Positions 40,001-43,000 of a stretch of DNA of 57,073 bases are shown in pieces; within the stretch, counting starts at the first letter, position 1; every line of letters starts with the position of its first letter. Location: the IMG/VR virus record IMGVR_UViG_2923307698_000004; one strand, given 5' to 3'. A program made the position numbers. The stretch comes from a virus (taxonomy: Duplodnaviria; Heunggongvirae; Uroviricota; Caudoviricetes).

Positions 40001-43000
40001 TCGCATTAATTTCTGACGTAAACGCGTACAGCGCAGGCTGATTACGCAGTACCTGTTCGATCTTCGCTTTCTAGGAAGCCTCACATTCACCATCTGCACA
40101 GGCCACCAGGTAGGCGGCGTTAATCACCACCTGTGCCAGATCGCGTTTTTCAAACTTTTTAATTTCCGTTGCCGCTCTGCGGGCTTTTTTTACCAAAAAT
40201 ACCAAACATCGTGACGTTCCTTTGGGTGGGTGAGCCAACGCCCGGGAGCGATCTGCCCACAGAGAAAGTCACACTGACCACTCCGTAAGCTCCCCCCCCG
40301 AAAGGCTCTGTGGTTGGTATGCGCCGGGCGTGGCGCAGATACAAAAAAGGCCCGCAAAAGCGAGCCGGGAAAATAAGTGTAGCGCGTTGTACTGGAGTCG
40401 AACCAGTGACCGATTGCTTAGAAGGCAATTGCTCTGTCCTGCTGAGCTAACAACGCAGAATACCGATAATGGACCACCACCGGGGACTCGAACCTCGCAC
40501 ACTCAACTTAAAGGGTTGACGCTCTTTCCTGATGGCTAGTGGCGGTTGGTGGCCCTTGCTGGATTTGAACCAGCGACCTGGCGATTATGAGTCGCTCGCT
40601 CTCACCACTGAGCTAAAGGGCCGGGCGCAGGATAATAACGTTACGAAATCAATGTTGCAAGCATACAAAAATCACCCTTATCTCCTCCACCAGCGCATTC
40701 ACCATGTCTATCCGAGATAAGTGGCACAACAAAACCCGCTTGTGGGCGGGTTTTGTTTGCTTTTGCCATCACGTACAAAATCGGCAAAATATCAGATTTG
40801 CATGAAATATATGCCTTTCAATCTACTTTTGCAACACTTTGCTTTGAAAATGCCGCCTTTTGTTTTGAACGTGTTCTCATTACAAATAATAAAGCCTCAC
40901 TATCCAGTCGGTGAAAAATGTGTTTCATTGCAACCCAGTGACGAGTAAATGTTTTGGACCAGTTTTTAGTTGTCACTCCCGCCAGTAATGCCAGCTCCTG
41001 ATATTCATAACCTTCCCCACCAAAAAGTTCTGCTTTTACTGCCTGCGCCGCCAGCCAGATTAATTTTTTCAGGCGTTCCTGCGTTTTCCCAGCAATTTTT
41101 CTGGTACCGGATTGAGTATTAAATTCATTCCACGCCCACTGTGTTATCGCGATCTGATATTCCCAACAAATACTCCCGCTGTAACACCACAACAACCAGG
41201 CTTTATGATGTTCTTCAAGAGACAGAACAGCCCGCCGCCACGATGATGTCGAAAACTCAACCGGACTGACCAGAGGAATTGACGTCACCTTCGCCAGCGA
41301 TTGCTTTCCCGGGATTGGTGGATTATCCCGCGTTATCATTTTTCCAGTCACTTCATCGCGGTACCGGATTTTTTTTCGCCTGTAACGCCCTGTATCGAAC
41401 ATTGAACCGCCCCGGTTTTCCTGGAGAGTGTTTTATCTGTGAACTCAGGCTGCCAGATCATCGTTTCTGATGGAAGCATAATAAGCTTTTTCTGCTTCTG
41501 CCGGAGGGATATGACCCAGCCTTCCCAGCAATCGTCGATTGTTATACCAGTCCACCCACGTGAGTGTGGCCAGTTCCACTTCTGCACGGTTTTTCCAGCT
41601 CTTACGGTGTATTACCTCCGCTTTGTAAAGACCATTGATGCTCTCCGCCATCGCGTTGTCATACGAGTCACCTGTACTCCCTGTTGATGCCAGCAGTTTT
41701 GCTTCTTTTAGTCGCTCCGTATAGGCCAGTGATACATACTGAGAACCTTTATCACTGTGATGGACTGTGCCGGACGGCCGACGGGCCCACAACGCCTGCT
41801 CCAGTGCATCCAGCACGAATGTTGTTTCCATGGATGATGAGACCTGCCATCCCACGATGTATCCGGCGAACACATCAATGATGAACGCCACATAAACGAA
41901 GCCCTGCCATGTGCTTACCCAGGTAAAATCAGCCACCCACAACTGGTCTGGACGTTCTGCCACGAACTGACGGTTTACGCGGTCGCATGCGGCAACGGCT
42001 TTCCGGCTGACGGTAGTGCGGACCTTTTTACCCCGGAGAACACCGGCAAGTCCCATAACCGCCATGAGACGTGCCACAGTGCATCTGGCCACTCTGATAC
42101 CTTCCCGTAACAACTGACGCCAGACTTTACGCACACCGTATACCTTGTGATTTTCATCGTATACGCGCTGTATCTCTTTCTTCAGCCAGTCATCGCGCTG
42201 CGCACGGGCACTGCGTTTATCCGGATGATGTCGCTGTTGCTGACAGTGGTAATACGTTGACGGGGCAATATGCAGTTCGCTGCATAGCGGTCCGACCCCG
42301 TACTGCTCACGCAGCTTATCCAGCAGTGGCATCATTTTTTCCAGAGGCGGTCGAACTCCGCCTTCGCAAAATAAGCGGAAGTCTGGCGAAGGATATCGTT
42401 ACTGCGGCGCAGTTCACGATTTTCACGTTCCAGCTCTTTCAGACGCTGACGTTCAGCGGTGGTGAGTCCACCATCACCACTCCCGGTATCCCGCTCATGC
42501 TGACGAACCCACACACGCAGAGTCTCTGGTGTACAGCCAATCTTTGGGGCAATGGAACAAATTGCCGCCCATTGTGAGTCATATTCGCCCTGACTTTCCA
42601 GAACCATACGAACTGCCCGTTGACGGACCTCGGGGGAAAAACGTGTATTTTTAGTCATCCTGTTTACCTCTTTCTCAGGGAGTTTAGTCTCCAGGATTCC
42701 CGGGGCGGTTCACATGGCATTCTCCTGCCAGGCTTCAAGCTGACCTTTTGTTGCCCCACTCAAATCAGCGGTGGCGATAATGAGCTGCTCACGCACAAAC
42801 TGTAAATAGTGGTTATTCATGCGCACTCCAGTTCTGTGATTTTTATCCCCAGCCGCCCACCAGGAACGAGCTGACCGCGCACAATATTGATTTCATCAAA
42901 CTGCTCGTCGTCTATGAGAAGTCCGGCATGCGTCAGCACATCCAGTGGTGCTTTCAGGATATTGTCCAGGTCACGACGGCGCTTATCCGGTGGCTCTGCA

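Follow-up and report, generated by a model that had tools for sequence, protein, structure and literature searches.

The window analysed here, the 57,073-nucleotide Caudoviricetes record IMGVR_UViG_2923307698_000004, contains a late antiterminator gene, Q, whose reading frame is broken by a 1310 bp insertion sequence (IS) that follows codon 36 and has an in-frame TGA at its end. The window copy of Q is a pseudogene of the Q82 family (PF06323). In the reading that we favour, and to which we give a probability of roughly 0.85, a lambdoid PPompW-type prophage received an IS629-group element by transposition into codon 36 of its Q82-type Q gene, and the 3-bp target ATG was duplicated, with the result that Q was lost and late transcription would end at tR'. 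The coordinates of the features are collected in Table 1.

The IS is found inside what had been proposed in an earlier note to be a single open reading frame, and its boundaries were reproduced to the base. The TGA stop of rusA overlaps the ATG of Q at 42820..42818 in an ATGA arrangement, and from this start the 5' frame runs, as that note had described, for 36 codons into the TGA at 42712..42710, formed by the three bases with which the IS begins. The 3' fragment begins with its first base adjoining the other IS end; it holds the 193 codons that had been reported before, or 194 when the duplicated ATG is counted. The identical CAT triplets claimed to flank the element are present on both sides of it. 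When the IS and one CAT are removed the two parts join in frame to a single ORF, now computed as 229 codons where about 228 residues had been estimated. The rusA gene, both Q fragments, the IS genes and the late genes are all on the minus strand. The gene also occupies the place that Q has in lambdoid phages, as had been suggested, with rusA before it and PR', a terminator and the lysis genes after it. At the level of sequence this order (rusA, Q, promoter-like site, pause element, hairpin, lysis genes) fits the Q82 family.

Table 1. Features of the interrupted Q locus and its surroundings, listed in the direction of transcription.
Feature	Position	Strand	Description
rusA	42817..43182	-	Holliday junction resolvase, 121 aa; ORF and PF05866 match
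Q gene 5' fragment	42713..42820	-	36 codons, the final one being the target-duplication ATG; product MNNHYLQFVREQLIIATADLSGATKGQLEAWQENAM
Target-site duplication, copy 1	42713..42715	.	CAT on + strand; read in the direction of Q this is ATG, codon 36
IS629-group IS3-family element	41403..42712	-	1310 bp; transposase genes oriented as Q
IS orfA	42658..42332	-	108 aa; Pfam HTH_Tnp_1
ALIL pseudoknot, programmed -1 frameshift signal	42261..42377	-	orfA/orfB overlap; Rfam RF01497, 120.2 bits (gathering score 50)
IS orfB	42335..41445	-	296 aa; Pfam rve and HTH_21
Target-site duplication, copy 2	41400..41402	.	CAT on + strand; gives the ATG opening the Q 3' fragment
Q gene 3' fragment	40818..41402	-	194 codons and stop
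Putative late promoter PR'	40806..40834	-	-35 TTGCAA, 17-bp spacer, -10 TATATT; promoter scan
Putative sigma70-dependent pause element, 82 type	40775..40794	-	Read from the sequence, with +1 at 40799
Putative tR' intrinsic terminator	40720..40757	-	Hairpin CAAAACCCGC/GCGGGUUUUG followed by UUGUG, about +43..+80; terminator scan
tRNA cluster Met-CAT, Lys-TTT, Arg-TCT	40382..40622	-	Between tR' and the late genes; ARAGORN, two of the three also found by Rfam
First late genes, Q-dependent in the proposal	34680..39298	-	All open reading frames in the window; Pfam
SASA/DUF1737 esterase	39298..37445	-	Pfam
P21-type holin	37292..37074	-	Pfam
DUF1327 protein	37069..36725	-	Pfam
Lysozyme	36674..36141	-	Pfam
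Antirepressor-like gene	35870..35301	-	Pfam
Rz	35147..34680	-	Pfam

The split gene had been called only Q-like, and an HMM search was the check suggested for this. The repaired protein of 229 aa matches PF06323, which is the Q82 family (PMC9388147), with an E-value of 9.7e-91 and 303.8 bits (cut-off 25) over profile positions 2-217 of 220, and it also matches PHROG 304, 'anti-termination protein Q-like', at 2.8e-107. The two fragments cover adjacent stretches of the Pfam profile, the head positions 2-32 (33.6 bits) and the tail positions 34-217 (257 bits). In tblastn the repaired protein is 76.0% identical to Q of phage 82 (X92588.1) with all residues 1-229 aligned, and 73% identical over 229 aa to the product of the Q82-like gene of phage 434. 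Phage 82 Q is likewise 229 aa long and has rusA immediately upstream, but 24% of the residues differ, and only the window gene is interrupted by an IS. Judged from these similarities, the gene is a genuine Q antiterminator of the phage 82 family and not just Q-like. Residues 1-35 are part of the conserved Pfam domain, since the head alone scores 33.6 bits and the tblastn alignments to homologues with identities down to 25% (N15, PY54, phiKO2) begin at Q residues 1-6. The repaired protein has no family match in NCBIfam and no solved relative among the PDB sequences; the lone PDB match, the Listeria phage Ply protein (E = 5e-4), is weak and evidently spurious.

A comparison with the uninterrupted allele, also proposed earlier, shows that this allele exists in exactly the predicted form. 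Uninterrupted loci that match the repaired rusA-Q-PR' segment at 100.0% identity along all of its 1247 bp are present in many complete E. coli genomes, belonging to O26/O111/O103/O145, and in 11 phage records, those of PPompW prophages included. The split Q frame is thus not a product of chance. The identical intact loci are annotated as 'bacteriophage antitermination protein Q' or 'phage late gene regulator Q', and the intact 229-aa protein is found on at least 999 contigs. The PPompW copies (for example LC567822.1 14503..15192; WP_001059384.1 in O26:H11 str. 11368) share 100% nucleotide identity with the repaired segment, but unlike the window they have no IS in Q. Other, independent early lesions are found in the same Q allele, namely Q27*, W31* and an IS30 before codon 17.

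The element itself had been named IS629. It is about 1.3 kb long and has inverted repeats starting with TGA (13 of 13 terminal bases identical, 22 of 25 overall), orfA and orfB with the frameshift signal, a DDE (rve) domain and a 3-bp duplication, and it matches named IS629 copies at the level expected of an isoform. The NCBIfam IS3 family transposase model matches with 310.6 bits. Target duplications of 3-4 bp have been reported for IS629, and its sub-types diverge by 4-5% (PMC3271280). Over all 1310 bp the element is 96.3-97.3% identical to annotated IS629 copies (JQ347801.1 from JLK-2012 and AJ556162.1 from BP-4795), while unnamed IS3-family copies in non-O157 EHEC (O103/O45 genomes) are 98.9-99.6% identical to it. 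The assignment to the IS629 group therefore stands, but given these two levels of identity the element is best called an IS629-group isoform.

A repeat copy of the IS misplaced in a long-read assembly would explain the locus without any transposition. The tail-gene region of the window, with 17 one-base homopolymer indels against four substitutions relative to its closest relative, does suggest imperfect polishing somewhere. A junction-spanning megablast moreover found the junction in none of the 5426 complete RefSeq E. coli genomes, among the matches listed; this absence is taken as real because a full-length 500-bp match would rank above pieces that contain the IS only. Exact-junction scans of genome, metagenome and viral contig collections gave 0 matches in each. 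However, the 3-bp duplication is perfect, and its removal with the IS exactly restores the wild-type sequence. The junction between the Q head and the IS is present in contigs of GCA_052417455.1, GCA_038435605.1 and ENA ERZ17860997, and probably also in GCA_025817675.1, where the contig ends one base inside the IS. GCA_052417455.1 also has the junction between the IS and the Q tail, on another of its contigs, which matches over 2247 bp with 0 mismatches. The exact 36-aa head product with its ATG start has been called on five contigs of other assemblies; a 38-aa version of the head fragment starting at GTG is not on record. Since both junctions thus occur in independent short-read assemblies, the IS position is not an assembly artefact, and this explanation is effectively refuted. 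The earlier note would have been overturned by a lack of similarity to Q or by junctions that were not reproduced independently, and neither was found.

The effect of the insertion must be judged from the region that follows the gene. The putative PR' overlaps the final codons and the stop of Q and lies in a block that is also conserved in phage 434 at its Q82-like locus; the inferred +1 of PR' is the A at 40799. Downstream of this, an extended -10-like TGnTATTTT is found at +6..+14, followed by GCC at +15..+17, an AT-rich stretch and a T at +25. The pR' of phage 82 has the same features, with an extended -10-like element, GCC at +15-17 and a pause at +25 on U (PMC5001585), and we infer that the element in the window has a pause function too. 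The putative tR' folds as RNA at -29.6 kcal/mol (z = -4.6) and aligns with a hairpin that follows the Q82-like gene of phage 434 and is annotated there as 'terminator'. The tRNA cluster that follows is also found after the intact Q of PPompW_132418.

In the Q82 family, Q is loaded onto RNA polymerase during its pause at about +25 from the constitutive promoter PR', and the polymerase modified in this way passes tR' and transcribes the late operon. Here Q is divided between a 36-aa peptide and a tail lacking the conserved N-terminus, so polymerase starting from PR' should be stopped some 75-80 nt further on, at tR', and neither the lysis cassette nor the virion genes would be expressed after induction. 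That the insertion probably disables late-gene expression, as was assumed from the outset, is a reasonable conclusion because an 82-type unit of PR', pause element and terminator is followed directly by late genes. We accordingly infer that both Q activity and late transcription have been lost at this locus.

The late genes could still be switched on if a related Q with the same specificity were supplied by a co-resident lambdoid prophage and acted at PR'. Q proteins act in trans in lambda biology, and more than one or two related rusA-Q modules are usual in EHEC genomes; with the 1247-bp query, the number of places with a related rusA-Q-PR' module in an E. coli genome had a median of 1 and a maximum of 8. 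Strain 95-3192, for example, has the intact PPompW allele together with a second Q gene, although in this case it is the second gene that is interrupted by an IS. On the other hand, each Q protein is specific for its own binding element, and we know of no cross-reaction between the Q proteins of lambda, 21 and 82. The 57-kb window bears on this question with one prophage only. Complementation of this kind is considered unlikely, if still worth keeping in mind. A more radical departure from the favoured reading is that the 194-aa tail is translated from the duplication ATG on transcripts reading through from the IS and still antiterminates, so that expression of Q has been rewired and not abolished. 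Gene finders repeatedly call the 194-aa product, the IS genes are read in the direction of Q with the transposase genes upstream on the same strand, and the ATG lies exactly at the IS end with the G-rich stretch GGGGCGG at -11..-5. As the ATG follows this stretch downstream of same-strand transposase genes, some translation of a Q without residues 1-35 is conceivable. There is, however, no canonical Shine-Dalgarno sequence, and the TGA and TAA stops between orfB and the ATG mean that no fusion protein is possible. The missing residues, furthermore, lie in the conserved domain and are aligned in homologues with identities down to 25-28%. A functional tail must be regarded as very improbable, and loss of Q is retained as the preferred reading.

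Positions 42712..57073 of the window are 99.90% identical, and positions 1..5632 are 99.93% identical, to PPompW_132418, and the early region corresponds to the PPompW backbone at 99.9-100% identity. The integrase adjoins ompW in O26 11368, and the window ends at the integrase gene. By these identities the prophage belongs to the PPompW type. Prophages of this kind are integrated at ompW and bring T3SS effector genes with them, and their hosts are EHEC and EPEC of the O26/O111/O103/O145 group. The window differs from its relatives in keeping the lysis cassette, which in PPompW_132418 is replaced by ISEc20; the O26 11368 prophage is cut short by an IS600 behind the antirepressor gene, which itself comes after the lysozyme gene. 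In the late region of the window (23700..25750) there are further apparent lesions, the 17 homopolymer indels and a 1.63-kb deletion, which may be errors of sequencing. The tail genes of the window contain many frameshifts, but as further proof of decay these were downgraded; nearly all are the one-base homopolymer indels mentioned above, with very few substitutions, a pattern that also fits unpolished long-read errors in a multi-copy region. PPompW-type prophages have already been reported to be defective (PMC8112680). The prophage in the window may already have been incapable of making virions, and the insertion may therefore have changed little beyond the expression of the lysis genes.

Pseudogenes of the Q82 family with IS3-family (IS629-type) insertions are also found in the RefSeq genomes of SY033 (NZ_CM185152.1), 95-3192 (NZ_CP027362.1) and HCP4S3_I4 (NZ_CM149872.1). 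As in the window, an IS with an ALIL pseudoknot lies inside Q in the orientation of the gene, with rusA adjacent, but in these strains about 450 or 594 nt of Q precede the insertion, against 108 nt in the window, and the Q alleles and the prophages are different. The possibility that these loci represent the same insertion in a diverged allele was rejected, as the annotated insertion points differ. In view of these cases and of the defects already described for PPompW prophages, the IS insertion in Q is real but an ordinary case of prophage decay in pathogenic E. coli, and it raises no new question. It adds one more route by which EHEC prophages become immobilised: silencing of Q would spare the host from being killed by an intact holin-lysozyme-Rz cassette, and the effector cargo would be retained. 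It also calls for caution when inducibility is predicted from the gene content of prophages. The allele provides a natural Q-null form for the Q82 family, whose structure is unsolved, and many strains offer the isogenic wild-type allele for comparison; the Q::IS629 junction could be used as a lineage marker, given that the same junction is found in several assemblies.

Elements of this group are known to leave as well as to enter. In STEC, stx2::IS1203v and lacZ::IS600 are simple insertions with a short duplication in the same host group and by the same IS group, and precise excision promoted by IEE, with restoration of the gene, has been documented for them; at the window locus such excision is hypothetical. 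In hosts with the IS-excision enhancer (IEE) it would regenerate the exact wild-type Q, since repair yields a sequence with 100% identity to the intact allele, and Q::IS629 could then be a reversible lock and no dead end: a small subpopulation would regain Q-dependent lysis-gene expression from a prophage that carries effectors, in a manner resembling phase variation. We consider this highly doubtful; if it were true, the Q27*, W31*, IS30 and IS629 lesions would reflect selection to silence Q.

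The start codon of the interrupted gene shares bases with the rusA stop codon (ATGA), and the codon that follows the 5' fragment of Q is a TGA (42712..42710) supplied by the terminus of the inserted element. The CAT triplets flanking the element read ATG on the coding strand, and the duplication thus both closes the 5' fragment and opens the 3' fragment. Deleting the element and one CAT in silico gives a single frame of 229 codons. All coordinates in the earlier note were correct, and so was its in-frame join, but the joined protein is one residue longer than the 228 or so proposed; its 193 codons for the 3' fragment hold without the duplicated ATG, and become 194 when this is counted.

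Features of the interrupted Q locus and its putative control region
Feature	Position	Strand	Remarks
rusA	43182..42817	-	121 aa, PF05866
Q head (5' fragment)	ATG at 42820 to 42713	-	36 codons
CAT duplicates	41400..41402 and 42713..42715		one on each side of the element
Inserted element	41403..42712		1310 bp
orfA of element			108 aa, HTH_Tnp_1
orfB of element			296 aa, rve with HTH_21
Q tail (3' fragment)	41402 to 40818	-	194 codons; first base directly beside the element
Putative PR'	40834..40806	-	TTGCAA-17-TATATT; overlaps last Q codons
Putative tR' hairpin	about +43..+80	-	CAAAACCCGC/GCGGGUUUUG then UUGUG

The assignment of the interrupted gene as a Q-type antiterminator is borne out by profile as well as by end-to-end similarity. 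The repaired protein matches Pfam PF06323 (Phage_antiter_Q; 9.7e-91, profile positions 2-217 of 220), with the two fragments covering adjoining positions (2-32 and 34-217), and PHROG 304, anti-termination protein Q-like, at 2.8e-107. In tblastn comparisons it is 76% identical to the phage 82 Q antiterminator (X92588.1) over 229/229 residues. The figure is 73% for its Q82-like counterpart in phage 434 and 66% for Gifsy-1 Q; N15, PY54 and phiKO2 are still detectable relatives at 25-29%. Three unrelated Q families exist, and PF06323 is the Q82 family among them (PMC9388147). A sequence search found no solved structure for a PF06323 member.

The inserted element has the same orientation as Q and looks intact. 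Its ends are inverted repeats (13/13 terminal bases identical, 22/25 of the first 25), it matches the IS3-family transposase model of NCBIfam at 310.6 bits, and an ALIL frameshift pseudoknot (RF01497, 120.2 bits) lies in the orfA/orfB overlap. The full-length identity is 96.3-97.3% to annotated IS629 copies of phages JLK-2012 and BP-4795, and 98.9-99.6% to nameless IS3-family copies in O103, O45 and related genomes. Since IS629 sub-types are reported to be 4-5% apart (PMC3271280), the name IS629 is acceptable for the element as a group name. IS1203 is counted as an IS629 isoform, and insertion of IS629 produces duplications of 3-4 bp (PMC3271280).

The uninterrupted allele is common. Many complete genomes carry loci, annotated as bacteriophage antitermination protein Q, that are 100.0% identical from end to end to the repaired 1247-bp rusA-Q-PR' segment; O26, O111, O103 and O145 strains are among them. 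The same holds for 11 phage records from the PPompW series, where the annotation is phage late gene regulator Q. The remainder of the window is likewise of PPompW type: its early region and integrase (42712..57073) share 99.9-100% identity with PPompW prophages, its left end (1..5632) matches the end of PPompW_132418 that carries effector genes at 99.93% identity, and in O26:H11 11368 ompW adjoins the PPompW prophage. At the nleA position the window has an open 441-aa reading frame (9109..10434, + strand); nleA of O26:H11 str. 11368 is marked as frameshifted in RefSeq and is one base apart from the window in an A-run at 9378.

The insertion is not an artefact, as both junctions are reproduced in independent assemblies. 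The exact 36-aa product is encoded on contigs of GCA_052417455.1, GCA_038435605.1 and ENA ERZ17860997, which reach 127, 75 and 53 bases, respectively, into the same IS end and then break; a contig of GCA_025817675.1 ends one base into the IS. The junction between the IS and the 3' fragment is found on a second GCA_052417455.1 contig, which has 0 mismatches to window 39274..41519, the sole difference being the length of a poly-C tract. In the flank of ERZ17860997 (L015), 45/52 differences fall within about 300 bp of the DUF968 gene (window 43921..44214), which looks like a recombined mosaic stretch upstream of the same inherited insertion. At 44811 the window has a single base unlike all four assemblies sharing the head junction (L013, L014, L015 and L016). 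The junction was found in 0/5426 complete RefSeq E. coli genomes and in none of the scans of three sequence collections, and the allele is therefore rare; in the protein collection the 36-aa product is found on 5 contigs and the intact 229-aa protein on at least 999.

Q::IS629 is an ordinary case, both partners being of known classes. Other IS3-family, ALIL-containing insertions are found in Q82-type genes beside rusA in the complete genomes of SY033 (NZ_CM185152.1), 95-3192 (NZ_CP027362.1) and HCP4S3_I4 (NZ_CM149872.1), and RefSeq annotates these genes as pseudogenes. All three insertions are parallel to Q, as in the window, but they differ from it in position: 95-3192 has the element after 594 nt of the Q gene, the other two genomes after about 450 nt. 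Further independent early lesions in the Q allele of the window, found by a look-up of the 194-aa product, are Q27* (CAG>TAG; GCA_904809675.1 and GCA_904810515.1), W31* (TGG>TAG; GCA_002542315.1) and an IS30 before codon 17 in three assemblies, two of them of ENA metagenome type. A look-up of this kind detects a lesion only if it lies before codon 36, and the intact allele greatly outnumbers these copies; the lesions are therefore read as ordinary decay and not as evidence of strong selection.

If the A at 40799 is +1, the RNA-coding sequence downstream of Q would read AAATCTGATATTTTGCCGATTTTGT, which contains an extended -10-like TGnTATTTT at +6..+14, GCC at +15..+17, an AT-rich run and a T at +25. 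At phage 82 pR' the sigma70-dependent pause falls on a U at +25 and goes with an extended -10-like element and, at +15-17, a GCC discriminator (PMC5001585); the sequence of window 40775..40834 (- strand) has the same layout. For the leader RNA the predicted folding energy is -29.6 kcal/mol (z = -4.6). In phage 434, the interval 3' of the Q82-like gene aligns with the whole block from PR' to the hairpin, and the counterpart of the hairpin is annotated there as a terminator. The putative tR' is followed by three tRNA genes, a TerB-like pseudogene remnant, a DUF3927 gene, a SASA/DUF1737 esterase and an open lysis cassette made up of P21-type holin, DUF1327 protein, lysozyme and Rz. A second promoter-like site, TTGCAA-17-TATTAT (40632..40660, - strand), lies just 5' of the tRNA-Met/Lys/Arg cluster, so that Q-independent expression of the phage tRNAs is conceivable. 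The poly-C tract 3' of tRNA-Arg (40292..40300) has 8 C here and 9, 10 or 13 in other assemblies of this locus, and is thus a homopolymer of variable length.

In the established mechanism of Q, polymerase starting at the constitutive PR' stops at tR' unless Q is loaded at the pause. Without full-length Q, transcription from PR' would end at tR', and the genes 3' of it should stay off. The earlier note considered late-gene expression probably disabled, which is reasonable from this anatomy and the known biology of the Q family; the split gene is confirmed, its interpretation is supported, and we infer the functional step. Even without Q, a short RNA running from PR' to tR', about 75-80 nt long, would be made constitutively. 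In Stx phages such leader RNAs work as sRNAs (StxS).

The 3' fragment might be translated into a truncated Q, as it opens with an ATG, has G-rich sequence 5' of that codon and sits 3' of IS genes on the same strand. However, two stop codons separate it from orfB, and such a protein would probably be inactive because the missing 35 residues of the 5' fragment, which score 33.6 bits alone, are part of the conserved domain, with alignments of distant homologues beginning at residue 1-6. The Q of another prophage might also complement in trans; it is common for an EHEC genome to contain several related rusA-Q modules, and a helper of this kind would lie outside the view of the window.

The prophage may be dead already. 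All PPompW prophages are defective according to PMC8112680, owing to IS insertions, deletions and pseudogenes. Compared with strain 97-3250 (L012), its closest relative, the window lacks 1.63 kb at 25260/25268, with loss of the major tail subunit, gp17 and a gp10-like gene, and has frameshifted tape-measure, tail-assembly, head-closure and connector genes. However, window 23745..25714 differs from that strain by 4 substitutions, 17 one-base homopolymer indels and one 7-bp deletion, a pattern that unpolished long-read error in a multi-copy region fits at least as well as real decay; the tail-gene differences are therefore not counted as established lesions. The lesion in Q may also be reversible: IEE, which the major STEC lineages carry, stimulates the excision of IS3-family elements, and interrupted genes have been restored in this way (PMC9397093; bioRxiv review). 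Precise excision at Q::IS629 would give the exact wild-type allele.
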